The notes beneath the pieces were generated by a model. The model ran no database searches. It was not told the origin of the DNA and saw only the letters and a program-made list of their open reading frames with translations. 64,000 nucleotides of DNA from an uncultured Gammaproteobacteria bacterium (lineage in GTDB: Bacteria; Patescibacteriota; Microgenomatia; 2-02-FULL-39-11): assembly GCA_964362665.1 (NCBI GenBank), contig CAYIFB010000005.1:2556-66555 (forward strand). The letters run 5' to 3'. The stretch's first letter is position 1; every line of letters starts with the position of its first letter. A program made the translations under genes and the position numbers. Shown piece after piece: positions 15,716 to 50,352 of the stretch.

Positions 15716-16978
15716 ATGAATTTAATAATTTTCTTTGCTGCCGGGATTTTGTACCGTTTATGGTTAATTCATCTCGTTCCTCAGCCGTTTGTCTATGATC
15801 AGAACCAATATTTATCAGTTGCCTGGGGCATCCTGCAATACGGGTTGTATGCGGATTATTCAAGGCTGTATGGTTATGGACTCTTAATTGCGCCTTTCAT
15901 CAAAATCTTTGGTTTATCAAATCCATTTCCCTGGCAGTTGTTTCAGGCAATTCTTGACACCCTTAGCGCTTTTTTGGTTTATTATATCGGTAAGAAGATT
16001 TTTAAGACGGAAAGAGCAGCTTTTTGGGGATTTATACTTTATCTGTTTAATCCTTTTACTTCTGCCTACGTAGGAGTGATGCTGACAGAGATAGCTGCAA
16101 TATTTTTCATGGTACTGGTGTTTTTTATTTATTTACGTTTTTTAGAAACCAGAAAAATATCTCTGCTTTTGCTCCTCGGTTTCATACTTGGATATTTCGT
16201 CCAGGTGAGGCCAAGTTTTTTGTATTTTACGATTTTTTTTCTAATATGGCTTATATTTCTGATTTTTAAAATTATAAAACCGAATAAACATAAGGCTTTA
16301 CTTTGTATTATTTTACCCATAATTTATTTAATACCTTTTTCATACAATATTGCGGCAAATTATAAAACTTTTCATCAATTTGCAATGTTGTCTGTTGACA
16401 AGTTTTTCTTTCGGGATGTCTATGTCAGCTTAATAGTTGACAGGGTACCACGCACATCCAGCGATCCTTATTATTTTTGGTCGGGAGAAGCATTGTATGT
16501 TTGGGGTGTGTTTTCGACGCCAAAAACTGTAATCGAAAGGCAAAATATGGCAGATAAGTATTTTCAACTTGGAATGGCAATCATAAAGAAAGACCCCATA
16601 AAATTTATCGTTTCAAGGGCCAAAAAAATGCAATATGTCTGGGAGAAGCATTATCTCTTTCCATATAAAATGGAATCTACAAATCCCATTATTAATTTTC
16701 TCGTGTATTGGATTAACGTCTGCTTTTTAGTTTTGACTCTATTTGGACTCATTATGTTTTTCAGGAAAAGAAAAAATGAAAAATCTTGGGCGGAAAAGCA
16801 GTCGATATATATAGTTATTTTTATCTTGATGTATATTACATTTGCCCATATGTTTAGCACCGGTGAAGAAAGGTTTTCACTGCCGGCTTACACTTTTGTT
16901 TTTATGTTTGCGGGTTTTGGATTATATACATTGCAAAATCGGTGGTTGGGTAGATATAATATACTTCTTTTATTATAA
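15716..16978 (+). CDS. GT-C-like (PMT/ArnT-type) membrane glycosyltransferase
   Basis: N-terminal 'RLWLIHLVPQPFVYDQNQYLSVAWG' resembles the first-loop acidic motif of the PMT_2/ArnT family. Multi-TM throughout. Confidence 0.5.
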   Translation: MNLIIFFAAGILYRLWLIHLVPQPFVYDQNQYLSVAWGILQYGLYADYSRLYGYGLLIAPFIKIFGLSNPFPWQLFQAILDTLSAFLVYYIGKKIFKTERAAFWGFILYLFNPFTSAYVGVMLTEIAAIFFMVLVFFIYLRFLETRKISLLLLLGFILGYFVQVRPSFLYFTIFFLIWLIFLIFKIIKPNKHKALLCIILPIIYLIPFSYNIAANYKTFHQFAMLSVDKFFFRDVYVSLIVDRVPRTSSDPYYFWSGEALYVWGVFSTPKTVIERQNMADKYFQLGMAIIKKDPIKFIVSRAKKMQYVWEKHYLFPYKMESTNPIINFLVYWINVCFLVLTLFGLIMFFRKRKNEKSWAEKQSIYIVIFILMYITFAHMFSTGEERFSLPAYTFVFMFAGFGLYTLQNRWLGRYNILLLL

Positions 16979-17046
16979 TTTGGAATCAGCATATACTCTT
17001 CTAAACTGTCCCTCGCTATCGCTCGGGATCGAGTAAGAAGAGTATA
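16961..17046 (+). repeat. family C repeat (~86 bp) copy 1, overlapping the last codons of the upstream gene and the 5' leader of 17059
   Basis: atacttcttttattataatttggaatcagcatatactcttctaaactgtccctcgctatcgctcgggatcgagtaagaagagtata. Near-identical to 17727-17812 and to the reverse complement of 29346-29432. Has terminal inverted repeats atacttctt / aagaagagtat. Confidence 0.65.
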
Positions 17047-17058
17047 ATTAAAAATTTT

Positions 17059-17715
17059 ATGGCAGAAGTAAACCTTCTTAAAAACTATCCGAGCGTCAAA
17101 AGAAATATTTCCCAGAGAGCAATAAATAAAACTGAGAGTATCCGGGCAGTTGCCCGAAAATTCGGTAAAGAATATTTTGACGGGGAGAGGAAATATGGCT
17201 ATGGCGGATTTAATTATCACCCGCGTTTCTGGCAGGGAGTGGCGCAGGATTTTCAAGAATATTATCACTTAACTGCAAAAAGCAGTATTTTGGATGTGGG
17301 TTGCGCTAAAGGCTTCATGATGCATGATTTTGCGGGTTTGTTTCCGGGAATTCAGATTACAGGCATCGATATTTCAGAGTATGCCGTGCGTCATGCGCTT
17401 GAAGATATGAAATCCCGTATAAGAGTGGGGAACGCTAAAAAATTACCCTACCAGGATAAATCATTTGATTTGGTCATCTCCATAAATACAATTCATAATC
17501 TTGCGCTTGATGAATGCAAACAAGCGCTTCGTGAGATACAAAGGGTGAAAAAAAAGCACAGCTTTATCACGGTTGATGCATACCGAAACAGTGAAGAGAA
17601 AAAAAGACTGGAAGCATGGAATTTGACAGCCTTAACTTATATGTCTGTACCAGAATGGGTCAAGCTATTTCATGAAGTCGGATATACCGGCGACTATTGG
17701 TGGTTTATTCCATAA
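17059..17715 (+). CDS. class I SAM-dependent methyltransferase
   Basis: Motif I 'ILDVGCAKGFMM'. Motif post-I acidic residue 'ITGIDIS'. Confidence 0.75.
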   Translation: MAEVNLLKNYPSVKRNISQRAINKTESIRAVARKFGKEYFDGERKYGYGGFNYHPRFWQGVAQDFQEYYHLTAKSSILDVGCAKGFMMHDFAGLFPGIQITGIDISEYAVRHALEDMKSRIRVGNAKKLPYQDKSFDLVISINTIHNLALDECKQALREIQRVKKKHSFITVDAYRNSEEKKRLEAWNLTALTYMSVPEWVKLFHEVGYTGDYWWFIP

Positions 17716-17726
17716 ATATTCATGAT

Positions 17727-17812
17727 ATACTTCTTTAATTATAATTTGGAATCAGTATTTACTCTTCTAGACCGTCCCTCGTTATCACTCGGGATCTAGT
17801 AAGAAGGGTATA
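17727..17812 (+). repeat. family C repeat copy 2 (5' leader of 17814)
   Basis: atacttctttaattataatttggaatcagtatttactcttctagaccgtccctcgttatcactcgggatctagtaagaagggtata. Confidence 0.65.
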
Positions 17813-17813
17813 T

Positions 17814-18488
17814 ATGAAGAAAAAATTAAAACAAACAGATGCTTACCGTTTAGGAACAGAGTACCAATTTATCAACCCCATCCCGATGGGACCATGGACT
17901 TCATACAGTCTTCTGAATGATCCTATCCATATGTCATTTGTCCTGGCCCGCTATAAATTTTGTGCCAGAATGCTTAGCGGTAAAAAGATGGTTTTGGAAG
18001 TTGGGTGCGGAGACGCTCCCGGGACGCCAATTGTGGCAGAATTTACCGGTAAAGTTATTGCAGTTGATGTTGAAAAAAGGCTAATTGACTCTGACAGAAA
18101 GCGGCTGCGGGATGTCAAAAATATAGAGTTCAGGGTGCATGATATCTGTAAGGATGCACCCTATGAGAGATTTGATGCAGTATATTCGATCGACGTCATC
18201 GAACATCTAGACACAAAGCTAAATATCCCTTTTATGGAAAATTCCGTTAAAAGCCTGCAAAAGCACGGAATTTGTATTATAGGTACACCAAATATTAAAG
18301 CAAACCAATATGCCTCTGAAAGAAGCAGAGTACAGCATATTAATCTTTTCAGCCATAAGTCTTTACATGACCACCTCTCCCGTTACTTTAATAATGTCTT
18401 CATGTTTTCGATGAGTGATGAAGTAATACATACAGGGTATGGAAATATGGCGCATTATTTATTCGGTATGGGCGTCGGGGTAAAATGA
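17814..18488 (+). CDS. class I SAM-dependent methyltransferase
   Basis: 'MVLEVGCGDAPGT' motif I. 'VIAVDVE' motif II. Confidence 0.7.
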   Translation: MKKKLKQTDAYRLGTEYQFINPIPMGPWTSYSLLNDPIHMSFVLARYKFCARMLSGKKMVLEVGCGDAPGTPIVAEFTGKVIAVDVEKRLIDSDRKRLRDVKNIEFRVHDICKDAPYERFDAVYSIDVIEHLDTKLNIPFMENSVKSLQKHGICIIGTPNIKANQYASERSRVQHINLFSHKSLHDHLSRYFNNVFMFSMSDEVIHTGYGNMAHYLFGMGVGVK

Positions 18489-20254
18489 AACTTGCAGATT
18501 ATGTAGCCGAATATTTAGTTTCTCAGGGCATAAAACACGTTTTTGTTGTCTCGGGCGGAGCGGCAATACACATGATTGATTCCGTCGCCCGAAACCCAAA
18601 AATTGACTATATTTGTTCCCAGCACGAACAGCACTCAGGGGCCGAAGCGGATGGATATAGCCGCATAAGCAATAATTTGGGTGCGGTGATAGTCACCAGC
18701 GGCCCGGGTGGAACTAATCTGGCAACGAGTATTGCTAATGCATATTATGACTCAATCCCCATAATTTTTTTATGCGGTCAGGTATCAACCTTCAGGTTAA
18801 AGAAAAACCCGGGACTTCGCCAAAAAGGATTTCAGGAGACAGATATTGTCGGGATGTTTAAACCTATCACCAAGTATGCCTCACAATTATTGGATTCTTC
18901 AGATATAGGATATGAACTGGAAAAAGCCACATACTTTGCCCGTGAGGGAAGGCCGGGACCTGTGGTTTTGGACATTCCGGATGATTTATCCAGAAGCGAA
19001 ATTGACCCTAAAAAGATAAAACACTTCCACCCTCCAAAAACTAAAAAAATAATAAAGAGTAATTTAATTACCCAAATAAAAGATTTAGACAGGTTAATTC
19101 AGGCTTCTTCTCGTCCTGTTTTGATTGTAGGAGCCGGTGTTGGAATTGCTGATTCCCGCCGGGAGGCTATAAGATTCGCAGAGTTTTACCATTTGCCTTG
19201 TGCCCATACCTTTGGGGGAGCGGATATTATGCCGTCTTCTCATAAATTAAATATAGGTACGATCGGAGTCTGTGGTCCAAGATCCGGAAATTTTGCCCTG
19301 CAGACATCAGATTTAATTATTGCAATCGGTACCCGACTTTCTCCGATGGTGACAGGCGGTAAGCCGAATCTATTTGCGCCGCACGCTAAAAAGGTAATGA
19401 TTGATATTGACCCTGAGGAGTTTATTAAATTTACCAAGCAGGAGTTTATACTGGATCTGGCAATCCGGACCGATGCAAAGAATTTTTTTGCAGTTTGGGA
19501 AAAACAGTTTAATAAAAAAATAAAGAATAAATTATTTGATAAATGGTTGAATAAAATTAAGATTTGGGAAGATAAATATCCGATTTGCCCAGCCTCCTAT
19601 TTTGCCAGTAAAAAGCAGATACAGCCTCACGTATTCATTAAAGAACTTGCCAAACTGGCTAAACAGGGCGACGTGATAGTAGGCGATACCGGAGCTAATT
19701 TATGCTGGTTGCTTCAAGCTTGGGAGACAAAAAAGGATCAGAGAATCATATCAGCCTGGAGTCACACTCCAATGGGTTATGCTCTTCCGGCCTCGATTGG
19801 GGCTGCTTTTACAACACATAAAAACATTCTTTGTCTTATTGGAGACGGCGGGCTTATGATGTGTCTTCAGGAATTGGCCACAGTGATTCGCTACCATATC
19901 CCGATTAAAATATTTATTTTCAATAATCACGGACATAGTATTCAGAAACAGACGCTTGAAACCTGGCTCAAAGGGCGATTTTCGGCAGTAGACGTTCCCA
20001 GCGGTTTATCTTTCCCGGATTTTCAGAAAGTCGCAAAGGCCTTCGGGATATCTACTCTGACTCTTGACCGTCATCAAGATCTTAGTAAAAAACTGTTACG
20101 GATTTTATCCATGAGAGGTCCAGTGCTTGTGAACGTGGAGATTGATCCTGACGCGAGAATTGTACCTATGCTGAAATTTGGCGCCGGACTTGAAAACATG
20201 GATCCAAAACTTCCAGAAGAAGAACTCTCATCACTAATGGGTGTTTTAAACTGA
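18485..20254 (+). CDS. ThDP-dependent enzyme of the acetolactate-synthase large-subunit family (YerE-like sugar branching enzyme candidate)
   Basis: N-terminal Pyr domain ('HVFVVSGGAAIHMIDS...GPGGTNLATSIANAY') and C-terminal PP domain with 'GDGGLMM...NN' ThDP-binding motif. The ATGA overlap with the upstream methyltransferase suggests operonic arrangement. Confidence 0.8.
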   Translation: MKLADYVAEYLVSQGIKHVFVVSGGAAIHMIDSVARNPKIDYICSQHEQHSGAEADGYSRISNNLGAVIVTSGPGGTNLATSIANAYYDSIPIIFLCGQVSTFRLKKNPGLRQKGFQETDIVGMFKPITKYASQLLDSSDIGYELEKATYFAREGRPGPVVLDIPDDLSRSEIDPKKIKHFHPPKTKKIIKSNLITQIKDLDRLIQASSRPVLIVGAGVGIADSRREAIRFAEFYHLPCAHTFGGADIMPSSHKLNIGTIGVCGPRSGNFALQTSDLIIAIGTRLSPMVTGGKPNLFAPHAKKVMIDIDPEEFIKFTKQEFILDLAIRTDAKNFFAVWEKQFNKKIKNKLFDKWLNKIKIWEDKYPICPASYFASKKQIQPHVFIKELAKLAKQGDVIVGDTGANLCWLLQAWETKKDQRIISAWSHTPMGYALPASIGAAFTTHKNILCLIGDGGLMMCLQELATVIRYHIPIKIFIFNNHGHSIQKQTLETWLKGRFSAVDVPSGLSFPDFQKVAKAFGISTLTLDRHQDLSKKLLRILSMRGPVLVNVEIDPDARIVPMLKFGAGLENMDPKLPEEELSSLMGVLN

Positions 20255-20258
20255 TCAT

Positions 20259-21110
20259 ATGACAAGGAAGGTACGTGAAGGTTTCGACTCAAAAAGAAAA
20301 ACAGTCATTATACTCTCAATAAGTAGTGATATTGGTAAAGATTTAGGCAGAAGATTCCTCCGGGATGGCGTTAACCTCATTGGTACTTATAGAAAATACG
20401 GTGAAATGGATGATCTTGATAAAAACACCAAATGCCGTTTACTCAAATGCGATATCTCACAAAAAAAGAGTATAAATAATTTTTTACAGCAATTTAAAAA
20501 ACTCAAATTAAAATGGGATATTATCCTGTCCTGTGTCGGTGATCTCCTGCCTCTGAATAGTTTTTTTGAATGCAATTTCGAAGGTTGGCAATCCTCGATG
20601 CAGGTTAATTCCATCGACCAACTGCGTGTTATACATGGACTTTACCCATATAGAAATACAAAAGGCGCAAAAGTGATATTTTTTGCCGGGGGAGGAGTAA
20701 ATAACGCAGTGGTTGATGCTTCTGCTTATACCGCAGCAAAAATAATGTTGATTAAGATGTGTGAGTTTTTGGATGCTGAAAATAAAGACATAAGTTTTTT
20801 TTCAATCGGACCCGGTTTTCTTAAAACCAAAATTCACAGTGTCGTATATCTGGATAAAAACGTCTCGAGAAAAAAAGTTATTGAAACGGATAATTTTATC
20901 AAGACAAAAAAAGAGGTAAAAATGGCATACCTTTATGAAAGTTTAAAGTGGTTATGCCAGCAGCCTAAAGAAGTGGTTGGCGGCCGAAATTTTTCGCTGA
21001 AAGGCGATCCGTTCAGCGGAAAAAATCGTAATTTATTGGCGGCGGAACTTATTAAAGATAAGGCTATGTATAAGTTGAGAAGACATAAAAATGATTTTCT
21101 GAGAATCTAG
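20259..21110 (+). CDS. short-chain dehydrogenase/reductase-like protein
   Basis: Rossmann-like 'VIILSISSDIGKDLG'. 'YTAAKIM' fits the YxxxK pattern. The start position is uncertain. Confidence 0.45.
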   Translation: MTRKVREGFDSKRKTVIILSISSDIGKDLGRRFLRDGVNLIGTYRKYGEMDDLDKNTKCRLLKCDISQKKSINNFLQQFKKLKLKWDIILSCVGDLLPLNSFFECNFEGWQSSMQVNSIDQLRVIHGLYPYRNTKGAKVIFFAGGGVNNAVVDASAYTAAKIMLIKMCEFLDAENKDISFFSIGPGFLKTKIHSVVYLDKNVSRKKVIETDNFIKTKKEVKMAYLYESLKWLCQQPKEVVGGRNFSLKGDPFSGKNRNLLAAELIKDKAMYKLRRHKNDFLRI

Positions 21111-21118
21111 TTACTGAT

Positions 21119-22126
21119 ATGAAAACAAAAGCTGCAATTTTATTTAAAACCGGGGAACCACTTCGTATCGAAGAGATCGAAATCCCCAAGTTAAGGCCGG
21201 GCCAAGTGTTAGTTCGAATGCTAGTGAGCGGGATATGCAGGGCGCAGTTAAATGAAGTTCGGGGATGGAAAGGCGAAGATAAATATCTTCCTCATTTATT
21301 AGGCCACGAAGGAGCAGGAGTCGTGGAGGAAACTGGTACCGGCGTCAGCAAAGTTAAACAGGGGGATTATGTTGTCACGTCATGGATAAAGGGGAAAGGA
21401 CTTGATGGAGGGGGAGCTCAATATAAATTAGGTAAAATTACCGTTAATTCCGGTTCAATAACCACTTTCGGAAGTAGAAGCGTCATCTCGGAAAACCGTC
21501 TGGTAAAAGTGCCTTCTCAAGTCCCGCCGCACATCGCTGCTCTTCTTGGTTGTGCGGTGCCAACCGGAGCCGGGATTATTTTCCACACTTTAAATGTTAA
21601 GAAAGGTTCATCAATTGCGATTTTTGGAATAGGTGGAGTAGGAGCAAGTGCAATTTTGGCGGCAAAAATGAGAGGCTGTAAAGTCATTTTAGCTGTCGAT
21701 ATATCAGAGGAAAAATTACAATTTGCCAGATTGCTTGGAGCTACGGATGTTTCATTATTTGATAACCTGAAGCCTCTATCTGTAGATTATAGTATTGAGG
21801 CAAGCGGTAATAAAAAGGCAATGGAAAAAGCCATTGAAGCAGTTTGCGATCATGGACAGGTGGTAATTGCAGGAAATTTAAAAAGGGGTGAAAAAATCAG
21901 CCTTGATCCATTTGAACTTATAAAGGGTAAAAAGATTATGGGCACCTGGGGAGGGGAGACAGACATTGACCGCGATATCCCGTTCTACGCAGAAGCTTAT
22001 CTTGAGGGTAAAATGAAGATTGATGGATTATTCTCTAAAAGAATTAAACTCCAAAAAGTTAATGAAGAATTAGACATAATGGAGAAAAATCAATTATTGG
22101 GAAGGGTTGTGATTGATTTTAAATAA
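21119..22126 (+). CDS. zinc-dependent alcohol dehydrogenase (MDR family)
   Basis: 'GHEGAGVVEETG' zinc-ADH signature. 'GIGGVGASAI' NAD(P)-binding glycine motif. Confidence 0.8.
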   Translation: MKTKAAILFKTGEPLRIEEIEIPKLRPGQVLVRMLVSGICRAQLNEVRGWKGEDKYLPHLLGHEGAGVVEETGTGVSKVKQGDYVVTSWIKGKGLDGGGAQYKLGKITVNSGSITTFGSRSVISENRLVKVPSQVPPHIAALLGCAVPTGAGIIFHTLNVKKGSSIAIFGIGGVGASAILAAKMRGCKVILAVDISEEKLQFARLLGATDVSLFDNLKPLSVDYSIEASGNKKAMEKAIEAVCDHGQVVIAGNLKRGEKISLDPFELIKGKKIMGTWGGETDIDRDIPFYAEAYLEGKMKIDGLFSKRIKLQKVNEELDIMEKNQLLGRVVIDFK

Positions 22127-22165
22127 ACATGGAGTTCATATAATTAATCAAGTCTTTCTCACGCA

Positions 22166-22240
22166 GGGCCTGCCGCTCGTCACCCTATTGCTGTGCCGGG
22201 TTAAACGTCACATCAACAGGGTACCTGACTCGCGTCACCC
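22166..22240 (+). repeat. family A GC-rich repeat, copy 1
   Basis: Starts gggcctgccgctcgtcaccc and ends cctgactcgcgtcaccc. Contains the gggttaaacg core shared with copy 2. Confidence 0.6.
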
Positions 22241-22256
22241 GCTTGCTGTATGACTT

Positions 22257-23246
22257 ATGTTAACTAAAACAGTAGTTATCGGAAGTAATTCTTTCTCAGG
22301 AAGTGATTTTATTGATCTAATCCTCGAAAAAAAACTTTTTAATGTTATCGGCATAAGCCGTTCGCCGGAAAAGAGTGAAATCTTTCTTCCTTATAAAAGA
22401 CACGGGGTTTCCCGGTTTAAGTTTTTTCAAATGGATCTTAATCAAGATCTCAAAAAAATATGCAGATTACTGGATGATTTCAAACCCCAATATGTAGTTA
22501 ATTTTGCAGCCCAAAGTGAAGTTGCTCCTTCCTGGGAACATCCCGAGCATTGGTTTCAGACAAATACCGTGGCTTTGGCCGGTCTTATCAACTATTTAAG
22601 GTCAGCCGATTATTTGAAAAGATACTTGCATATTTCCAGTCCTGAAGTTTACGGCAGTTGTGAGGGAACTGTGACAGAGAAAGCGCCGCTCAATCCAAGT
22701 ACGCCCTACGCAGCTTCCAAAGCTGCTGCCGATCTGCTACTTCTGACATTCGTCAAAAATTTTAATTTTCCTCTTATTACGATCCGCTCAACAAACGTTT
22801 ACGGAGCTCACCAACAACTTTTTAAAATTATTCCCCGGTCGATCATTAATATCCGTAAGGGAATAAAAATTCATCTTCACGGGGGAGGCAAAGCCGTAAA
22901 GTCTTACATTCATATTCGGGATATTTCCCGGGGAGAACTTCTGGCTTTACAAAAAGGAAAAATCGGCGAGATTTACCATTTATCACCCGAGAGGGGAATC
23001 AGCGTTAAAAATGCAGTTAAATTAATCTGCGATAAAATGAAAGTGGATTTTGCCAAAGCCACGATTTCAGTTGGCGAAAGGCTAGGGCAGGACAGAGCCT
23101 ACGTCATTGATTCCTCTAAAATACGCCGCCTCGGTTGGAGCGAGCAGGTATCTTTAGATCAGGGTCTTAAAGATGCAATATCCTGGATTGATAAAAATTG
23201 GAAGGTGATTAAAAAGATGCCCTCAGATTATAAACATAGACCCTAA
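22257..23246 (+). CDS. NDP-hexose 4,6-dehydratase (CDP/dTDP-glucose 4,6-dehydratase family, extended SDR)
   Basis: 'VIGSNSFSGSDF' Rossmann motif, 'NFAAQSEV', 'SSPEVYG', 'YAASKAAAD' (YxxxK). Confidence 0.65.
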   Translation: MLTKTVVIGSNSFSGSDFIDLILEKKLFNVIGISRSPEKSEIFLPYKRHGVSRFKFFQMDLNQDLKKICRLLDDFKPQYVVNFAAQSEVAPSWEHPEHWFQTNTVALAGLINYLRSADYLKRYLHISSPEVYGSCEGTVTEKAPLNPSTPYAASKAAADLLLLTFVKNFNFPLITIRSTNVYGAHQQLFKIIPRSIINIRKGIKIHLHGGGKAVKSYIHIRDISRGELLALQKGKIGEIYHLSPERGISVKNAVKLICDKMKVDFAKATISVGERLGQDRAYVIDSSKIRRLGWSEQVSLDQGLKDAISWIDKNWKVIKKMPSDYKHRP

Positions 23247-23250
23247 AGAA

Positions 23251-23757
23251 ATGGCCTATTTAGCACTAAATCTATTTATTTTCATTATTTGTGGTATTTT
23301 ACATATTATAATTCACCGCTTTTTCGCCAAAAGAGGGATTTTGACTCTCAAAACTGCTTTAATATTTTTACCCGGATTATTTATTAGTATATATATTTCA
23401 GGTGTTTTACCCCGATCAGAAATCTGGTGGAATGTGTCGATTCCTTATTCAGGGGTGATTTTTTATATTCTGATGGTCGGTATACTTATCATATTTTATA
23501 CTACGCCATCTTTTTCAAGCATCAGCCCGTCAACCATGATCTTAAGACTGCTGAAAAAAAATGGGAAGATGTCATTCCGGAAATTAAAGGGATATTTTTC
23601 TGATGAGTCACTGATCGTCTTTCGATTGAAAGATCTTCTTCGGGACGGACTGATCTTTTTGAAAAAGGATAAATTCAGGGTAACCCCAAAGGGCAACAGG
23701 ATAATAAAAGTGATTGATATTTATAGAAAGATATTCGGCTGGAGGACAGGCGGATAA
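23251..23757 (+). CDS. small membrane protein with C-terminal winged-helix-like domain (paralog 1)
   Basis: Three to four N-terminal TM helices. C-terminal 'MSFRKLKGYFSDESLIVFRLKDLLRDGLIFLKKDKFRVTPKGNRII' looks like a winged helix-turn-helix. Confidence 0.4.
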   Translation: MAYLALNLFIFIICGILHIIIHRFFAKRGILTLKTALIFLPGLFISIYISGVLPRSEIWWNVSIPYSGVIFYILMVGILIIFYTTPSFSSISPSTMILRLLKKNGKMSFRKLKGYFSDESLIVFRLKDLLRDGLIFLKKDKFRVTPKGNRIIKVIDIYRKIFGWRTGG

Positions 23758-24257
23758 TGGATAATTTTATCATTATAAATACTTTAATCTCTATAACGGC
23801 CTACTTTATCTTACATATAATTATTCTGCGGAAAATTAATCAGAATGATATTTTTAAATGGCTGGTCTATGTCTATCTTCTGGCGGGATTTTTTCCTTTT
23901 CTTATCGGGTGGTGGGGAGGATTCATTTTCGGGTCACTAATCTCATGGATGTTTTATACTTTATTGGTTTTAATTTATGTGTTGGCTATACTTGGGGTTA
24001 TGGAGTCGTCAATAAGAATAAGACTATTAAAAGAGATTTACGATGCCAAAGACCACGGAATTGATCTGAAGCAAATATTAAAAAAATATAATAAAGATGT
24101 TATATTACACAAAAGACTGCAAAGATTTTTGTCTGCAGGAGAAATAAGCTTTTGTGAGGGAAAATATCAGCTGGAAAAAAAGTTTACGGCTTATACATTA
24201 CCGGATTTTGCAATCAGGATGATTTGGAAGTTATATACTTCTCAAACTAAAGTTTGA
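23757..24257 (+). CDS. small membrane protein with C-terminal winged-helix-like domain (paralog 2)
   Basis: Same architecture: TM helices, then 'IRIRLLKEIYDAKDHGIDLKQILKKY...RLQRFLSAGEISFCEGKYQL'. Start overlaps the previous stop. Confidence 0.4.
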   Translation: MDNFIIINTLISITAYFILHIIILRKINQNDIFKWLVYVYLLAGFFPFLIGWWGGFIFGSLISWMFYTLLVLIYVLAILGVMESSIRIRLLKEIYDAKDHGIDLKQILKKYNKDVILHKRLQRFLSAGEISFCEGKYQLEKKFTAYTLPDFAIRMIWKLYTSQTKV

Positions 24258-24976
24258 ATCAGTATAAATACAGGAGAAAAACTATGAACAATAAAGGCGT
24301 CAGCATCATTATCCCGGCTTATGATGAAGAGAAGAATATCCAGTCGGCAATTAAAAGCGCAGACAAGGCGGTGAGAGGCATATGTTCGAAATATGAGATT
24401 TTAGTCATTAATGATGGCAGTCATGATAGAACATGCCAAAAAGCAGAACTTGAAACCAAATCAAATAAATCGGTCAGAGTGATAAATTTAGTTCGTCACG
24501 AAGGTTATGGAGTGGCCATTAAAAAAGGTATAGAAGAAGCCAAAATGGAATATTTGACAGTTTTTCCGGGAGATAATGATATGGATTTAAATTCTCTCTC
24601 TGACCTTCTCAAAGCCATGGGGAGCGAGGATTTAGTCATTTCATATCTCGGTAAAAGCGATACGAGGAGGCTTTGGAGACGCATAGCATCCCTCACCTAT
24701 ATCGCGCTTCTTAGTACGCTTTTTAAACTGAAACTTGAGTACTATAACGGGCCGTTTATCTGCAGGAGCAAACTATTAAAAAATCTCCGTTTAATCTCAA
24801 CCGGCTTTACCGTTTGTGCAGAATTGAAAATAAGACTCATAAAAAAAGGATTTTCTTATAAAGAGATCCCCTTTGTGCACATAGGCCGGTTGTACGGAAA
24901 ATCTAAAGCTTTAACATTCCGATCCATAGCAAATGCATTGATTGTAACTTTAATAATGTGGAAAGATATTAAATAA
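24254..24976 (+). CDS. GT2 family glycosyltransferase (DPM1/GtrB-like polyprenyl-phosphate sugar synthase)
   Basis: 'VSIIIPAYDEEKNI', 'VINDGSHDRT', 'HEGYGVAIKKG', 'FPGDND'. Confidence 0.75.
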   Translation: MNQYKYRRKTMNNKGVSIIIPAYDEEKNIQSAIKSADKAVRGICSKYEILVINDGSHDRTCQKAELETKSNKSVRVINLVRHEGYGVAIKKGIEEAKMEYLTVFPGDNDMDLNSLSDLLKAMGSEDLVISYLGKSDTRRLWRRIASLTYIALLSTLFKLKLEYYNGPFICRSKLLKNLRLISTGFTVCAELKIRLIKKGFSYKEIPFVHIGRLYGKSKALTFRSIANALIVTLIMWKDIK

Positions 24977-25965
24977 TGAGAACTCTTGTGACAGGGGGAG
25001 CGGGCTTCATCGGCAGTCATTTGGTGGAAAGATTGCTTGCGGCCTGTCATGAAGTGGTGGTTTTAGATGATCTTTCAACCGGAAGGCTTGATAACTTAAC
25101 TTCGGTTAAAAACAATTCTTTATTAAAAATCCGGAAAATAAATATAACTGATCCGAAGATTGATTTAGACAACTATTTTAAGGGGGTTGATTTTGTATTT
25201 CATCTGGCCGCCCGAGCGGACGTGGTGCCTTCGATCGAAAAGCCTTTTGAGTATCACAATGTGAATGTGAACGGTACCGTGAAAGTTCTGGAAGCCGCGC
25301 GGCATGCAGGCGTAAAAAAATTCATATATACCGCTTCATCTTCATGTTATGGAATTCCAGAGAGCTATCCAACGAATGAATCAGCTAAAATTGATCCCCG
25401 ATACCCTTATGCATTGACAAAATTCCTGGCTGAACAATATGTGCTGCATTGGGGGAAGATTTATAAACTGCCGGTTGTCAGCCTTCGTTTATTCAATGTC
25501 TTTGGTCCGCGTAGCCGAACTAGCGGCACATATGGCGCAGTTTTTGGCGTATTTTTGGCTCAAAAGCTGGCAGGCAAGCCGTTTACGGTGGTGGGTGACG
25601 GAAGACAGAGCCGGGATTTTACTTATGTATCTGACACGGTAGACGCATTGGTTACAGCGGCGCAGTCACAATTAGCTGGTGAGATTTTCAATGTGGGATC
25701 GGGAAAACCACAAAGCGTTAACAGACTGGTGGGATTAATTGGCGGATCTGTAATTTATATTCCGAAGCGTCCCGGAGAGCCTGATTGCACCTGGGCTGAT
25801 ATTTCTAAAATTAAAAAAAAGCTTGAATGGCGCCCAAAAGTCAGTTTTGAGAAAGGGGTTGAAATACTTCTTCAACACATTGATTACTGGAAAAAAGCAC
25901 CCGTCTGGACACCGCGATCAATTGAGAAATCAACCAAGGAATGGTTTAAATATATGAGTGTCTAA
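24976..25965 (+). CDS. NAD-dependent nucleotide-sugar epimerase/dehydratase (GalE/WbpP-like)
   Basis: 'TGGAGFIGSHLVERLL', 'YALTK' catalytic YxxxK, 'DGRQSRDFTYVSD'. Confidence 0.8.
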   Translation: MRTLVTGGAGFIGSHLVERLLAACHEVVVLDDLSTGRLDNLTSVKNNSLLKIRKINITDPKIDLDNYFKGVDFVFHLAARADVVPSIEKPFEYHNVNVNGTVKVLEAARHAGVKKFIYTASSSCYGIPESYPTNESAKIDPRYPYALTKFLAEQYVLHWGKIYKLPVVSLRLFNVFGPRSRTSGTYGAVFGVFLAQKLAGKPFTVVGDGRQSRDFTYVSDTVDALVTAAQSQLAGEIFNVGSGKPQSVNRLVGLIGGSVIYIPKRPGEPDCTWADISKIKKKLEWRPKVSFEKGVEILLQHIDYWKKAPVWTPRSIEKSTKEWFKYMSV

Positions 25966-25973
25966 TATGACTA

Positions 25974-26106
25974 GAGTTTCGCGTTATTATATAGTTATTC
26001 CCAGAGGGTCCTGCCGCTCGTCACCCTGCTGTTGCGTCGGGTTAAACGCCGACAACAGCATGGCACCTGACTCGCGTCACCCACTCGATTTCTGTTAACG
26101 CGAGAC
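25974..26106 (+). repeat. family A repeat copy 2 with flanking terminal inverted repeats (MITE-like, fills the intergenic region)
   Basis: Core gggtcctgccgctcgtcaccc...cctgactcgcgtcaccc (26006-26082). Flanked by gagtttcgcgtta (25974-25986) and taacgcgagact (26095-26106), which are inverted repeats. Confidence 0.7.
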
Positions 26107-26113
26107 TTGTGAA

Positions 26114-27733
26114 ATGATAAAAAAAAGATTATTGATACTTTTTATCGGCCTTATCAGTCTTTCAGTGCTGGAATTTCAGTATTTTAATTTGTCTTTCCAC
26201 ACTCCGCCGGATTCAATCTATCTGGGTACCGTGCATTATCCTCCTGACTATTTTTCATACCTGTCATATATTGTTCAGGGAAAAGATCATCTTCTTTCCT
26301 CGACTGCGCTTTATAATTCCGAAAAAACACCCCTAGTTTTAGTCAGATGGCAGTTTGTCCTGTGGGGTAAAATATTATCCTTTTTTCCATTAAATACGGG
26401 TCAAATGTATCAAATAGGCGTGATAATTTTTACCATTGGTTTCATGATCAGCGCATATTTATTAATTTCACTCTTACTGGCAAAATACGAAGAGAAATTG
26501 CTGGCGTTCGTATTTTTTGTCAGCTCGACTGCCTGGCCAATAATAACGGTTATTGAAGGTAAACTAAGTTTTTCATACCACTCTTACTGGTATAATACGG
26601 GAGATTTCTTTACCCGTTTTAGTCCGACTCCAAACCATCTTTTGGGAAGTATACTTCTAATTTCAGGTTTTATTCTGATTTTACGCTGGTGCCGGAATAT
26701 TGATTCCAAAAGGAAAATATCACGCTTCATCAATAATATTGCTTTTACTTTTATCGGACTTACTTTAGCCAGTTTGTCACCGATGCATTGGATTCTATAT
26801 TTGGGTAGTTTGACAGGACTGATGGTGATTTTATCCATGCGGGAACTCATCATAGATAAAAAGCCTGTTTTGTATATACTCAAATATCTTCAACCTATTT
26901 TATTTTCGCTGGCCGGAGGACTTCCTGCGATACTATATATCCTCTCAGTCTATAAAACGTTTCCTTACAACATCGGTAATTCATGGGAGGCTATAAATCA
27001 GGTATTTATGGATTTTCCGAATCTTTTTTACGGAAGCGGATTGGTACTGCTTTTTGCGGCAGGAGGATGCTATTCATATTTTCGGCATAAATTTTTTACA
27101 CCTGAAAAACTGGTCACTTTATTTTTTATCGCGATCAGCCTGATCTTTTTTTTCACTGATCTGCCATGGAAACTGGGAACCTCAAATGTCAGGTACTGGC
27201 CTGAAGGAATATATGTTTTTCTCGCGGTTTTAGCCTCCCATGGGGTATTTTTTCTTGCAGGAATGGCAAAAAGAGCAAAGCGTTTAGTACTTTTTGTTTT
27301 TATTTTATTATATTTTGTGACAACCGTACCATCCATTTTCGCCGGGATTAAAGAAAGGTCGGATGTCGTCATAAGTAATACTAATTACCTCCCTCTTAGC
27401 ATTTACGAAATTTATGAATTTTCCTCAAAGACAATAAAAAGACCGAGCGTTTTTCTTATTCCCTGGCCCTTTGATAATTCATTTCCTGCTTTCACCGGCC
27501 AAAAATCCTTTACCGGCCATCCGCTTTCTCAGATGACTATTGACGCAGATAAGAAATATGCTCTTTCTGCACAGTTTTTTAGCGGGACGCTCGATGAAGA
27601 AAAAGCCCGCGCGATTTTGCTACAAAACGGAATTCAATATGTCTTATTGCCTTACAGGTCAGCAATTGCAAAATACAGCTTTCTCAAAAATCTGTACAGC
27701 CGCGGAGATGCAGCTGTTTTTGAGGTGAAGTAA
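26114..27733 (+). CDS. GT-C-like polytopic membrane protein, divergent fifth member of the paralog family
   Basis: 'LGTVHYPPDYFSYLSYIVQGKDH' parallels the 'HN..D(Y/F)..YLS...G' loop motif of the other four paralogs. Multi-TM. Confidence 0.5.
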   Translation: MIKKRLLILFIGLISLSVLEFQYFNLSFHTPPDSIYLGTVHYPPDYFSYLSYIVQGKDHLLSSTALYNSEKTPLVLVRWQFVLWGKILSFFPLNTGQMYQIGVIIFTIGFMISAYLLISLLLAKYEEKLLAFVFFVSSTAWPIITVIEGKLSFSYHSYWYNTGDFFTRFSPTPNHLLGSILLISGFILILRWCRNIDSKRKISRFINNIAFTFIGLTLASLSPMHWILYLGSLTGLMVILSMRELIIDKKPVLYILKYLQPILFSLAGGLPAILYILSVYKTFPYNIGNSWEAINQVFMDFPNLFYGSGLVLLFAAGGCYSYFRHKFFTPEKLVTLFFIAISLIFFFTDLPWKLGTSNVRYWPEGIYVFLAVLASHGVFFLAGMAKRAKRLVLFVFILLYFVTTVPSIFAGIKERSDVVISNTNYLPLSIYEIYEFSSKTIKRPSVFLIPWPFDNSFPAFTGQKSFTGHPLSQMTIDADKKYALSAQFFSGTLDEEKARAILLQNGIQYVLLPYRSAIAKYSFLKNLYSRGDAAVFEVK

Positions 27734-27816
27734 CCGGCTCAATTGATTTATTTTCCTGCATTTATTAAGATACATAAGTTAAATATTCCCTTTACAAAAG
27801 TAAAACTATCTTTTAC

Positions 27817-29343
27817 ATGCAAAAACAAGTCAAACTTTCAGAGCTCATAAAGATAATAAATATAGCCAGATCAGAAGGTAAAAAGATTGTTCAGTGCCAC
27901 GGAGTCTTTGATTTACTTCATCCGGGTCACATCAGGCATTTTGCCAGCGCTAAAAAATACGGTGATATTCTTATAGTGACTATAACCGCTGATAAATTTG
28001 TGAAAAAAGGCCCCGGAAGACCGGTTTTTAATGAGAATTTGAGAGCAGAATCTCTGGCTGCAATAGAATATATCGATTATATTGTCATTGTCTCCTCTGA
28101 CTCCAGTAAAGACAGTATTTTAAAGATAAAACCGGACTTTTATATTAAAGGCCCGGATTATAAAAAAAGAAAAATCAGTCCTTACATCTCCCAAAAACTG
28201 GTGGCGGAAGAAAAAGCAGTTGTCGAGTCAGGAGGCAAATTAATTATAACCGAGGATCAGGTGGTGTTCAGCTCTTCCAAACTGATCAATGAGTATCTGG
28301 AAGTTTATCCGGCTACTACAAAGAAATATCTGGACAGCTTAAAATTGAAATATACGCAGGATTATCTCTTGGAGAAATTAGATCTTATAAGAAACATCAA
28401 GGTGTTGATAATAGGTGATGCAATCATCGATCAGTATAATTTCTGCGCTCCCATAGGTAAATCTTCTAAAGAGCCGGTAATCGTGCATAAATTCATCTCT
28501 TCCGAGTCGTATTTGGGAGGAGTTTTGGCAACAGCTAATCATACCTCTTCTGTCTGTAATGAGGTGGGTCTCGTCACTCTTTTGGGAAAGAAAAAATCAT
28601 ATGAAAAATTTATCAGGAAGCATCTGAAAAATAATATCTCGGAAAAATTTTTTTTCCGGTCAGACTCAAGCACAATTATTAAGTCCAGATTTATCGATGG
28701 AGTTCTTTATCAAAAACTATTTCAGGTGAGTTTCATGAAGGATGAGATTATCAGTGATGACTTATCTCAAAAAATAAGCCAATATCTTCGCTCTGAAATC
28801 AAAAAATACGATATGGTTATCGTCAATGATTATGGACACGGAATGTTGACCAAAAGGATAATCCAAACAATCTGTCACAATGCAAAATATCTGGCGCTGA
28901 ATGTTCAGGCCAATAGCGCAAATTATGGATTCAACGTCATCACTAAATACCCGAGGGCTGATTTTATCTGTATTGACGATCAGGAATTAAGACTTGCCGC
29001 CCAGGACAGATATTCTGACCTGATTAAACTTATCAACAAGATTTATAAGAAAATGAAGTGTCAGGATATGATAGTTACCAAAGGATCGCAGGGATCAATC
29101 AGTCTATCGAGCGATAAAAAAATTATTGAAACTCCGGCCTTGAACCAAAAAATCGTGGATCGGGTGGGAGCGGGAGATGCGTTTTTTGCCATATCTGCGC
29201 CCTGCGCTTATTCAGGTATGGACAAGGATTTAGTCTCATTCATGGGGAATGTTGCCGGGGGATTAAAAGTCCAGACGATCGGCAACAGAAAGCAAATCGA
29301 TTTCACCGAGATGATCAAATTTATTACCAGCTTATTGAAATAA
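27817..29343 (+). CDS. bifunctional heptose-1-phosphate nucleotidyltransferase / sugar kinase, HldE-like but with the domain order swapped (nucleotidyltransferase N-terminal, pfkB kinase C-terminal)
   Basis: N-terminus 'IVQCHGVFDLLHPGHIRHFASAKKYGDILIVTITAD...GPGRPVFNE...LAAIEYIDYIVIV...IKGPDY' matches the HldE domain-II cytidylyltransferase fold (HxGH). C-terminus 'VLIIGDAIIDQY' and 'DRVGAGDAFFA' are pfkB/ribokinase signatures (HldE domain I). Confidence 0.7.
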   Translation: MQKQVKLSELIKIINIARSEGKKIVQCHGVFDLLHPGHIRHFASAKKYGDILIVTITADKFVKKGPGRPVFNENLRAESLAAIEYIDYIVIVSSDSSKDSILKIKPDFYIKGPDYKKRKISPYISQKLVAEEKAVVESGGKLIITEDQVVFSSSKLINEYLEVYPATTKKYLDSLKLKYTQDYLLEKLDLIRNIKVLIIGDAIIDQYNFCAPIGKSSKEPVIVHKFISSESYLGGVLATANHTSSVCNEVGLVTLLGKKKSYEKFIRKHLKNNISEKFFFRSDSSTIIKSRFIDGVLYQKLFQVSFMKDEIISDDLSQKISQYLRSEIKKYDMVIVNDYGHGMLTKRIIQTICHNAKYLALNVQANSANYGFNVITKYPRADFICIDDQELRLAAQDRYSDLIKLINKIYKKMKCQDMIVTKGSQGSISLSSDKKIIETPALNQKIVDRVGAGDAFFAISAPCAYSGMDKDLVSFMGNVAGGLKVQTIGNRKQIDFTEMIKFITSLLK

Positions 29344-29345
29344 AT

Positions 29346-29432
29346 ATATACCCTTCTTGCTCGATCCCGAGCTATAACGAGGGATAGTCTAGAAGGGTTT
29401 ATACTGATTCCAAATTGCAGTAAAAGAAGTAT
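29346..29432 (-). repeat. family C repeat copy 3 (inverted), overlapping the start codon of 29431
   Basis: Reverse complement reads atacttcttttactgcaatttggaatcagtataaacccttctagactatccctcgttatagctcgggatcgagcaagaagggtata. Confidence 0.65.
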
Positions 29433-30438
29433 GAAGAAAGTATTAGTAACAGGAGGAGCCGGATATGTGGGAGGTGTCCTTGTGCCGAAGCTACTTAAAG
29501 CAGGATACGGGGTAATCGTACTCGATTGGTTTTTATACCGCGAGAAAATATTTAAAAAACACAATGCTTTACAGCAAGTTAAAGGCGACATCAGAGATGA
29601 AAAATTGATTAAACGCTTATTAGTAGGATGTGACTTCGTCATACATCTTGCATGTATTTCCAATGACCCAAGTTTTGAACTGGACAGGAAGTTATCCAAA
29701 GAGATCAACAATGACGCCAATAAAAATCTGGTGAAATTATCCAAAAGAGCAAAGATTAAAAGATTTATCTATGTATCGAGTTCCAGCGTCTATGGCATCA
29801 GACGTGAGCCAAACGTAACAGAAGATTTAATTTGCGCTCCCTTGACCGACTATTCACGGTATAAACTTGAAGGGGAGAAGTATGCCTTGTCGGAAAGATC
29901 TGACAGTTTTGTCGTTTGTGTGGTTCGTCCGGCAACAATTTGCGGCTATTCTCCGCGATTAAGGCTTGATTTGACCGTGAACATGCTGACCTTACAAGGA
30001 CTAGTGAATAAAAAGATTACGGTTTATGGGGGAGAGCAGAAACGGCCAAATATCCATATTGAAGACATTACCGATTTATATGTGCAGTCTTTGGAGTTTG
30101 CCTCCGAAAAAATAAATGGAGAAATTTTCAATGTAGGCTATGACAATATGTCTGTTTTAAAAATAGCAGAATTAGTGAAAAGCACCCTCAATGACAGGAG
30201 TATAAAAATTGAAGTGTCCAAAACTGACGACTTAAGAAGCTATCATATTTCCAGTAAAAAAATTAGAGAGGCGCTTGGTTTTATACCAAAAAAGAGCATA
30301 AAAGATGCCATCTTAGATTTAAAAGAAGCATTTTTAGCCGGAAAAATTCTAGATCCATTGACTGACGAAAAATATTACAACATAAAGACCATGAAATCGT
30401 TTACTCCTAAATATTCCTATGAAAAAACAAAAAAATAA
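29431..30438 (+). CDS. NAD-dependent nucleotide-sugar epimerase/dehydratase (extended SDR; HldD-like or CDP/ADP-sugar epimerase candidate)
   Basis: 'VTGGAGYVGGVLVPKLL'. 'YSRYK' fits YxxxK. Confidence 0.7.
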   Translation: MKKVLVTGGAGYVGGVLVPKLLKAGYGVIVLDWFLYREKIFKKHNALQQVKGDIRDEKLIKRLLVGCDFVIHLACISNDPSFELDRKLSKEINNDANKNLVKLSKRAKIKRFIYVSSSSVYGIRREPNVTEDLICAPLTDYSRYKLEGEKYALSERSDSFVVCVVRPATICGYSPRLRLDLTVNMLTLQGLVNKKITVYGGEQKRPNIHIEDITDLYVQSLEFASEKINGEIFNVGYDNMSVLKIAELVKSTLNDRSIKIEVSKTDDLRSYHISSKKIREALGFIPKKSIKDAILDLKEAFLAGKILDPLTDEKYYNIKTMKSFTPKYSYEKTKK

Positions 30439-35647: not shown

Positions 35648-36802
35648 ATGATTCCAAGTTTTGATATTAAAAGACAAAATAAAACATTAAACCGTGAATT
35701 AAACAGGTCTATTCAAGAAGTATTAGACCGGGGTATCTTTATTTTAGGAGAGAAGGTGGAAGAATTTGAAGACAATTTTGCCTCATATCTCGGGGTAAAA
35801 TATGCAGTCGGGGTAGGGAGTGGGACTGATGCCCTGTCTTTAGCTCTTATTGCAATTGGAATTAAACCGGGAGATGAAGTGATTATGCCGGTAAATGCTT
35901 ACCCCACGGCTTTTGCAGTTACCGCGATTGGTGCCCTCCCCGTCCTTATCGATATTGATCCAGCTACCTTTAACATTAATCCTGATCTCATTGAACAGGC
36001 AATCACCAAGAGAACTCGTGCCATTCTCCCAGTCCACCTCTACGGACTCCCTTGTGATATGAATTCCATCATGAGGATTGCCAAAAAGCACAATCTGAAA
36101 GTCATAGAAGACTGTGCACAGGCACATGGGGCCACGCTGAGCGTGGCTATACCCGCGCTGAGCGCGGGGGCAGAGATTCGTTCACTTTCAACTGGTACTG
36201 ATTTAAATTGGAAAAAAGTGGGCAGCATTGGCGACGCGGGGTGTTTTTCGTTTTATCCGACAAAAAACTTGGGATGTTTTGGTGACGGGGGAATGGTGGT
36301 GACGAATAATAAAGAAATTTACGATAAAGTAAAGCTGCTCAGGATGTATGGGGAAAAGACACGATATAAAAGCGTAATACTCGGGCGAAACAGCAGACTG
36401 GACGAATTGCAGGCGGCAATCTTGTTGGTTAAACTTAAATATTTGGATAAATGGAATAAAAGGAGAAGGGAAATAGCTGAGTTGTATTTATCTCATATAG
36501 CCGGCCCCGCCGAGTCTACTGCCGTAGACTCTTTCTTTCACGTTTATCACTTATTTGTTATCCGGACAAAGAAACGAGACCAATTAAAAAAGCATCTGGA
36601 GGAAAAAGGAATACAAACCGCGGTTCATTACCCAACCCCAGTTCATCTGCAGGAGTCTTTCCGGTTTTTAGGATACAAAAAAGGAGATTTTCCTGTGGCA
36701 GAAAAGTTGGCCGATGAGATTTTGTCCATACCCATGTTTCCTGAATTAACCGAGTCGGAACTTATGGCGGTAGTTTCAGGAATAAATTCTTTCTTCGTAT
36801 GA
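35648..36802 (+). CDS. DegT/DnrJ/EryC1-family PLP-dependent sugar aminotransferase, carrying a roughly 25-aa in-frame insertion
   Basis: 'GVGSGTDALSLAL', 'AQAHGA ... VGSIGDAGCFSFYPTKNLG' (PLP-lysine region). The insertion 'TLSVAIPALSAGAEIRSLSTGTDLNWKK' sits between HGA and VGS, where family members normally have about 5 residues. Confidence 0.8.
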   Translation: MIPSFDIKRQNKTLNRELNRSIQEVLDRGIFILGEKVEEFEDNFASYLGVKYAVGVGSGTDALSLALIAIGIKPGDEVIMPVNAYPTAFAVTAIGALPVLIDIDPATFNINPDLIEQAITKRTRAILPVHLYGLPCDMNSIMRIAKKHNLKVIEDCAQAHGATLSVAIPALSAGAEIRSLSTGTDLNWKKVGSIGDAGCFSFYPTKNLGCFGDGGMVVTNNKEIYDKVKLLRMYGEKTRYKSVILGRNSRLDELQAAILLVKLKYLDKWNKRRREIAELYLSHIAGPAESTAVDSFFHVYHLFVIRTKKRDQLKKHLEEKGIQTAVHYPTPVHLQESFRFLGYKKGDFPVAEKLADEILSIPMFPELTESELMAVVSGINSFFV

Positions 36803-50147: not shown

Positions 50148-50234
50148 GGGTCCTGCCGCAAGTTTCCCTCCCGCCAGTACTCGACTCGGATTCTCGTTTG
50201 CGTGCTGTCGGGATCCCTTCCTCTTGCGTCACCC
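50148..50234 (+). repeat. family A repeat copy 5, immediately upstream of the start of 48150-50147
   Basis: gggtcctgccgcaagtttccctcccgccagtactcgactcggattctcgtttgcgtgctgtcgggatcccttcctcttgcgtcaccc. Confidence 0.65.
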
Positions 50235-50352
50235 GCTTATCCTTAATTATTATCTAAAACGACGGGATTCTCAAGGAGGGGATTTCAGGTATCAGGTGTC
50301 AGGTATCAGGTGTCAGAACTAAAACCTATAACCTAAAACCTGCAACCTTACA

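Follow-up and report, generated by a model that had tools for sequence, protein, structure and literature searches.

Several families of small repeats described in bacteria resemble the one treated here. The Correia elements of Neisseria (CREE or NEMIS) are non-coding units of 100 to 155 bp that occur in many copies, are bordered by a TA target-site duplication, lie next to or run into gene ends, are often co-transcribed and fold into hairpins (PMC2229807). The RUP element of the pneumococcus (107 bp) has terminal inverted repeats (TIRs) and inserts at TA and into other mobile elements, and its mobilisation in trans by IS630-Spn1, through an IS630-family transposase, has been proposed (PMC2229807). 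In CIR, from Caulobacter and Brucella, the 5' and 3' sections form independent stem-loops and TA stands at the termini, and RPE (Rickettsia) and ERIC/YPAL are small palindromic repeats tolerated within coding genes or at their ends, where they add or replace residues (PMC2229807). Counterparts of many of these properties were found in a repeat of 87 nt that occurs three times, and once in a shortened form of 33 nt, in a 64,000-nt stretch of contig CAYIFB010000005.1 (the window), which comes from Hainich groundwater and encodes proteins whose nearest relatives are in Gottesmanbacteria.

The three repeats and the shortened (mini) copy very probably represent a non-autonomous DNA transposon, that is, a miniature inverted-repeat transposable element (MITE), of a family widespread in Microgenomates (Gottesmanbacteria and Roizmanbacteria; candidate phyla radiation (CPR)/Patescibacteria). 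Copies are numerous and dispersed, the sites that they occupy are polymorphic, exactly TA is duplicated on insertion, each end of the unit is a TIR, copies have inserted into one another, and the structure is conserved. The traits published for bacterial MITEs, namely a length below 200 bp, TIRs, 5'-TA-3' termini, target-site duplication and fusion to open reading frames (ORFs), are matched (PMC2229807). The kind of element is well known, and the family itself is previously undescribed. No match to Rfam was obtained at gathering thresholds for the window and 12 canonical loci (nothing relevant at E up to 1-5), phage and plasmid collections and a pattern scan of IMG/VR gave no match, and full-text literature searches returned nothing relevant, with no description of the element or of MITEs or structured RNAs in CPR.

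The three full window copies, c1, c2 and c3 (Table 1), are 85 to 89% identical in pairwise comparison over about 87 nt, and the similarity ends abruptly on both sides. An initial annotation, made from the letters of the window, had placed all three where they were found and had given them a length of about 86 bp; the copies were confirmed, and boundaries taken from the whole family shifted the unit by one base, to 87 nt. The end repeats that it had read (ATACTTCTT and AAGAAGAGTAT) are real, and its proposal of a mobile palindromic element gained support from the empty sites of c1, c3 and the mini copy, the TA duplication, the imperfect TIRs and more than 160 copies elsewhere. The fourth, 33-nt copy had been overlooked. 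Covariance model R1 scored c1 at 55.9 bits (E 9e-11), c2 at 46.8 bits (E 1.8e-8) and c3 at 50.9 bits (E 1.7e-9). Shuffled sequence would be expected to contain the 22-nt hairpin core TCCCTCGNTATNNCTCGGGATC 0.01 times, and the window contains it three times. The 3' half of each copy forms a stable hairpin on either strand (-17 to -26 kcal/mol; -22.7 kcal/mol with a z of -2.9 for the c1 hairpin), in which one stem position reads U-A, U-G and C-G across the three copies.

The wider family was reached through orthologous loci, retrieved via homologues of methyltransferase 1, the gene that follows c1. One of them (L029) carries at 15299-15402 a diverged relative of the window copies with the same outer stem and a different inner hairpin, and the positions common to this relative and the window copies, 24 of them fixed, were used as a search pattern. 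Scanning a metagenome collection with the pattern gave at least 120 loci, and nhmmer found 160 full-length copies in the DNA fetched, a count that gives no estimate of density because this DNA was chosen for carrying at least one copy. A single architecture, a canonical unit of about 104 nt running TATAC...GTATA (Table 1), was seen in all pattern matches listed. The window copies form a subfamily with a short left arm, other members of which are L048, L081, L111 (also from Hainich groundwater), L122, L127 and L149. With R1, canonical copies scored 80-117 bits and window copies 46.8-55.9 bits (E 1e-8 to 1e-10), and copies missed by the pattern were recovered, including an AT-rich subfamily. Contigs with the element are labelled Candidatus Gottesmanbacteria, Candidatus Roizmanbacteria or "Patescibacteria group"; density reaches 4-5 copies per approximately 8 kb in some contigs (Roizmanbacteria), and many copies lie at contig ends. 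None of the units, whether of 87 nt (window), about 104 nt (canonical) or 33 nt (mini), has an ORF of its own, and all are of the size of a non-coding MITE (under approximately 200-300 bp). As in MITE families, copies are many and dispersed, are found in both orientations and differ in presence among relatives.

Comparison with relatives identified sites without the insertion for c1, c3 and the mini copy. The c1 site is empty in L034 and L033 (...AGATATAA-TA-AATAAAATATTATGG); relatives with 86-90% methyltransferase identity read ...AGATATAATAAATAAAATATTATGG where the window reads ...AGATATAA[TATACTTC...GAGTATA]ATTAAAAATTTTATGG, and the joined c1 flanks align across the junction in relatives (blastn). 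At the c3 site, empty in L156, L157 and L158, the upstream stop is followed by 4 nt and then by ATG RCT ATA AAA AAA. The mini-copy site is empty at L029:17640-17650 (GTTA-TA-CACGGG) and filled in the window (GTTA-TA-[TACTTC...CAGTA]-TA-AATACAGG), with TA duplicated, and an empty and filled pair of sites was also compared between L029 and L035. A further case is a nested insertion of an AT-rich copy in a canonical copy, in which the target GCGGAT-TA-GATGG corresponds to the filled site GCGGAT-[TATAC...GTATA]-GACGG; since these flanks are non-periodic, the net gain is the unit minus 2 nt, and the TA duplication is therefore exact. It agrees with what is seen at c1, at the mini copy and on the left of c3. 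A 4-bp duplication of TATA, also considered, was ruled out by the same nested insertion, the target of which has TA alone. Nesting is reciprocal, in that canonical copies also lie inside the AT-rich element (GGGG-TA-TATACTG). The flanks of 129 copies have TA as their sole invariant feature, set in a weak symmetric R-TA-Y context. The family shows the insertion at TA and the 2-bp duplication that mark elements moved by IS630/Tc1-mariner transposases. The element integrates at a TA dinucleotide, duplicating it. The enzyme that moves it in trans would be a DDE transposase of IS630/Tc1-mariner type, with its gene at another place in the same genomes; that such a transposase moves the family is probable, as judged solely from the TA footprint and the TIRs.

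Two arrangements of neighbouring copies were noted in other contigs: two canonical copies in tandem, 113 nt from start to start (L062 4223-4439), and two copies head to head that overlap at the terminal TATAC (L036 2320-2526). The terminal TA of a copy already in place seems to be a preferred target of the elements, and insertion at such a TA may have been the origin of the two-armed unit.

The TIRs are imperfect and about 26 bp long (TATACT..A.AACTCAGGTTTGCAA / TTGCAAACCGGAGTAAGATGGGTATA), with the left end TATACTncnAtAACTcAgGTTTgcAA matching the reverse complement of the right end, TATACCCATCTTACTCcGGTTTGCA. Compared end to end over 28 nt, they agree at a mean of 16.8 positions, relative to 7.0 in the control; in the window copies the TIR measures about 13 bp. 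Each TIR pairs with adjoining internal sequence, and either strand folds into two stem-loops, the left one of which (TAC...GTA) is also found alone, as the mini element. Conservation in the loops (ACTC.GGTTTGCA) falls on exactly those positions that are conserved in the TIRs, and binding of a protein to the TIR would explain their invariance. RNAalifold on a MAFFT alignment recovered the fold in part, with hp1 out of register, and a manual structure and a realignment based on the covariance model (CM) were used instead. With the manual structure on the MAFFT alignment, 87% of cells pair, relative to 31-50% when the structure is slid, with a covariation of 0.184 (0.03-0.06 when slid). In the CM-based alignment of 122 copies, which is biased towards its own structure, 88.7% of cells pair (28-51% when slid), covariation is 0.225 (at most 0.056 when slid), and changes on both sides are found in 24 of 36 pairs. 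Most of the covariation is carried by stem-loop 1 and by helices P2 and P3, which are free of pattern constraint. G:U and A:C pairs occur in similar numbers (158 and 136, respectively) and neither strand is favoured, so that a palindrome at the DNA level fits better than an RNA made from one strand.

Two conserved stem-loops on one strand, with stems that covary as a structure-specific recognition site would, could also belong to a hairpin moved as single-stranded DNA by an HUH (Y1) transposase, either REP/BIME with RAYT or a palindrome-associated element derived from IS200/IS605, and no DDE transposase was found near copies. Such a mechanism is quite improbable here: TA is symmetric at both ends with no one-sided conserved tetranucleotide, the ends are inverted repeats of each other, the two hairpins are dissimilar, and the net gain in the nested insertion is the one that TA duplication predicts. 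REP/BIME was rejected on the lack of the GTAG motif and on termini that read TATAC/GTATA, with TA duplication and TIRs; an IS200/IS605-derived element was rejected on symmetric flank logos in which only TA is conserved, and on the presence of TIRs.

The genes around the window copies all lie on the + strand, which places c1 and c2 in sense and c3 in antisense. The alternative offered by the initial annotation, a shared cis-regulatory RNA leader (riboswitch-like or attenuator) coordinating the sugar-modification genes downstream, could draw on c1 and c2 lying in sense directly upstream of two methyltransferase genes, on the stable hairpin of the 3' half, with an AGAAGGG stretch near the start codons, and on the covarying pairs across the family. 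It has been set aside as very improbable, because orientation is near-random, neighbours are diverse and orthologous leaders lack the element. No fixed sense orientation before one class of gene was found: c3 is antisense to the operon, and across the family the downstream gene has the orientation of the element in 62 cases and the opposite one in 48, with 41 and 57 cases, respectively, for the upstream gene (genes called with a crude ORF caller). The neighbouring genes are functionally unrelated and include those for EF-P, MreB, a sortase, ABC transporters, histidine kinases, a Cas2-like protein and many glycosyltransferases. Leaders without the element were found in relatives of 84-90% protein identity, and the lack of an Rfam match and the balance of G:U and A:C pairs also speak against an RNA leader. 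The repeats might also have arisen within this one locus, by duplication or by gene conversion among leaders of paralogous genes, as could be suggested by c1 and c2 preceding paralogous class I methyltransferase genes 766 nt apart; with relatives that have both methyltransferase genes and no c1, and more than 160 copies in unrelated contexts and taxa, the probability of a purely local origin is practically nil. The initial annotation had reserved this reading for the case that neither further copies nor a conserved secondary structure should turn up; clearly there are both, many copies and a conserved, covarying fold.

Another reading is a structured RNA or DNA module that is useful to the host, be it as operon punctuation, as a binding site for a protein or as a hairpin for mRNA stabilisation or processing, and that is spread by transposition and kept by selection on its fold. 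Strong covariation in both stem-loops across Gottesmanbacteria and Roizmanbacteria, a density in some contigs of about one copy per 2 kb, or roughly one per intergenic region, the location of nearly all copies between genes or at gene ends, and the precedents of Correia, ERIC and RUP for effects at the RNA level (PMC2229807) are all compatible with such a module. It is nevertheless considered unlikely, as there is no strand asymmetry, and no conserved promoter or terminator signals were found in the flanks of copies. Generic promoter and terminator scans gave no clear excess over shuffled sequence, and an outward promoter, suggested by termini like TTGCAA-N16-TATAnn, was rejected when the sixth -10 position proved to be A in 57% of copies, with T in 16%. 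Moreover, compensatory changes in palindromic DNA can arise by quasi-palindrome (templated) correction without selection. Small, yet appreciable, is the chance that the element is modular and self-assembling, composed of two TAC...GTA mini-palindromes that share a TA and are each mobile alone, with hairpins selected as general operon punctuation in streamlined CPR genomes (for example as a scaffold for protein binding, or as sites for the processing, stability or termination of RNA). If true, this would explain both the compensatory covariation across candidate phyla and the density near one copy per intergenic region.

A number of observations weigh against interpreting the family as a MITE. 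In approximately 0.8 Mb of genome fragments, no partner transposase was found among recurrent neighbours (545 ORFs of all loci were clustered and recurrent ones compared with Pfam, which returned housekeeping and glycosylation genes only), nor was an autonomous partner with matching TIRs, solo TIR-like sites numbering 8. No clean insertion is seen for c2: its site in L033, L034 and L029 holds a left-arm-like remnant only (TATACTACCTCAGTAATTTGGTCTGAGGTA...; TATACTACCTCAG TAATTTGG TCTGAGGTA). Judging by this remnant, an element probably stood at this site in an ancestor, and c2 may be older than the other copies in the window. At c3, TG stands in place of the right TA, and some 10 nt of ancestral spacer and start are missing on the left of the element, so that at least one further event must be assumed there. 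Formally, an asymmetric element inserted without duplication would leave the same trace as the TA duplication. Invariance of the 24 positions fixed by the search pattern is partly circular. Finally, the compensatory covariation exceeds what a purely selfish, recently spread MITE needs, which leaves room for selection on the hairpins. The inverted pairs of copies in L140 and L043 were considered as composite transposons; no transposase lies between them, the genes there encoding a PEGA-domain protein and an unknown protein, and the idea was dropped.

In the window, the insertions have replaced one C-terminus, altered another, rebuilt one start codon and separated two tight gene junctions. The locus is one of glycan and heptose-type sugar genes (GT-C/PMT_2, two class I methyltransferases, a thiamine pyrophosphate (TPP) enzyme, a cytidylyltransferase with PfkB kinase, an NAD-dependent epimerase and a SIS isomerase). 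Copy c1 sits directly after a native TATAAT and 12 nt ahead of the ATG of methyltransferase 1, and exchanges the C-terminus of the PMT_2 protein (...RYNILLLL* here, ...RYNK* in L034). The initial annotation had correctly seen that c1 supplies the end and stop of this GT-C gene; the codons number five (GRYNILLLL*), not six. Copy c2 takes up the space between the two methyltransferase genes; its end lies 1 nt short of the second start codon (ATG at 17814). Copy c3 parted the epimerase from its ancestral start and, much as first described, contributes part of the present one: the A of this ATG is the final base of the element core, its T belongs to the duplicated TA, and its G is G29433, where A was expected (ATA to ATG). 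The protein begins MKKVL instead of the MAIKKVL or MTIKKVL of relatives. The mini copy changes the C-terminus of ORF 23757-24257 (...LYTSQTKV* here, ...LYTGEKL* in L029) and parts a stop and start that overlap as ATGA in L029. The window copies would be co-transcribed within a glycan-biosynthesis operon, with their hairpins as passengers of the mRNA, and such hairpins may affect mRNA processing, stability or translational coupling.

Table 1. Copies of the element in the window, genes remodelled by them, and architecture of the canonical unit.
Feature	Position in window	Strand	Description
c1	16960-17046	+	87 nt; TA at 16960-61 and 17045-46; runs TATAC...GTATA; right-hand hairpin unit 16992-17046
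c2	17726-17812	+	87 nt; runs TATAC...GTATA; spacer of methyltransferase 1/methyltransferase 2
c3	29347-29433	-	87 nt; starts CATAC; between cytidylyltransferase/PfkB kinase gene and epimerase gene
Mini copy	24234-24266	+	33 nt; left arm only (TATACTTCTCAAACTAAAGTTTGAATCAGTATA); junction of ORF 23757-24257 and next gene (ATG 24284)
GT-C/PMT_2 glycosyltransferase gene	15716-16978	+	last five codons and stop from c1
NAD-dependent epimerase gene	29431-30438	+	start codon rebuilt at c3 junction
Canonical unit, left part			TATACT, then stem-loop 1, e.g. TCGATAACTCAGG TTTGCAA CTGAGTTAC, then TCAGTATA
Canonical unit, right part			long irregular stem-loop 2: TACCCATCT-AA-TCCGCTTT...variable hairpin...AAACCGGA-GTA-AGATGGGTA, then TA

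The inner hairpin of the window copies (TCCCTCG.TAT..CTCGGGATC; 17009-17030, 17775-17796 and 29363-29384) is a separate module. A scan of species-representative genomes with the inner core gave 27 loci (L002-L028), relative to approximately 4 estimated by chance, and at none of these 27 was the 87-nt element present. Some of the matches fall in two unrelated multi-copy repeat families, with 11 copies in the metagenome-assembled genome (MAG) CAYRTD01 and 5 copies in CAYHAE01, and the exact 22-mer of c1 also occurs as a single copy in six unrelated phyla. The module resembles the widespread CC-TCGC..CGCTC-GG hairpins that many MAGs have in their intergenic DNA.

Other repeats were also observed. 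A repeat of about 130 nt (GAGTTTCGCACCTCTGTCATTCCGAGTGACTCCGATGACCATCGGAGGAGCGTGGGAATC...), present in opposite orientations at L029 9900-9991 and 10670-10800 and at L035 1-60, occupies the junctions of PMT_2 with methyltransferase 1 and of methyltransferase 1 with methyltransferase 2 in a Rifle relative, where it extends the PMT_2 protein to 508 aa; several families of small repeats seem to have a hot spot at these gene junctions. Short hairpins (GATGCTGAAACAAGTTCAGCATGACA / GTCATCCTGAATTTATTTCAGGATC) recur beside MITE copies (L029 15420-15445, L035 6570-6599 and the flanks of L082 and L041) and make up a further class of small palindromic repeats in several Gottesmanbacteria and Roizmanbacteria contigs. 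Within the window, an intergenic family with GGGYCCTGCCGC...GCGTCACCCRCT ends has four copies in two length classes between glycan-pathway genes (22166-22252, 26007-26094, 40712-40805 and 50144-50237), with no Rfam match at gathering thresholds. Two inverted copies of a 96-nt repeat (2204-2299 and 41156-41251; 99% identical), with hairpins GGGCGTACTCCAAAAT...ATTTTGGATACGCC and TAATCCTAAATAAT...ATTATTTAGGA, probably represent another small mobile or structured element. A 203-nt direct repeat (35930-36132 and 44360-44562; 94% identity) lies within coding sequence and appears to reflect two paralogous genes, not a mobile element. The long degenerate tandem array at 52585-53150, with a 6/12/18-nt period (GTNGGNGT-like), is located in a 1303-aa ORF (52055-55966, - strand) and presumably encodes a low-complexity repeat protein.

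CPR/Patescibacteria genomes are small (approximately 1 Mb) and are commonly regarded as streamlined, with little mobile DNA, and no dispersed repeat family described in this group was found in full-text literature searches. The many copies at contig ends are as expected for an assembly-breaking repeat and suggest that the family breaks metagenome assemblies. This bears on the assembly and annotation of MAGs, in which gene ends and starts may be miscalled. Insertions that are present in one strain and absent from another could mark strain-level variation. The window shows gene termini and start codons visibly remodelled in a cell-surface glycan locus, and with them a route to variation in the surface-glycosylation operons of ultra-small bacteria. 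Model R1 provides a direct means for a census of the family and for a transposase hunt.

Correia elements have TIRs of about 24-26 bp with TA at the ends, reading TATA..., and the consensus termini in Neisseria are TATAGYGGATTAA... (TATAG). By inspection of the termini (TATACT/TATACCC here, TATAG there), the likeness is one of type and not of membership; the host phylum is unrelated, and no sequence similarity to Correia elements was observed or would be expected. Correia elements also form one long end-to-end hairpin, whereas here there are two independent stem-loops, each made of a TIR and adjoining internal sequence, and they carry an IHF site and promoters, with no equivalent demonstrated in the present family. 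For RUP a partner insertion sequence was identified by TIR similarity, whereas none was found here, and sequences and hosts are unrelated. CIR has no TIRs, no demonstrated target-site duplication and a GANTC methylation motif, in contrast to the TIRs and TA duplication of the present family. RPE lies in frame within genes of obligate intracellular bacteria and its target-site duplication is uncertain, whereas nearly all copies here are intergenic or at gene termini; the residue changes made by RPE and ERIC/YPAL are paralleled in the window by the C-termini formed by c1 and the mini copy and by the start rebuilt at c3.

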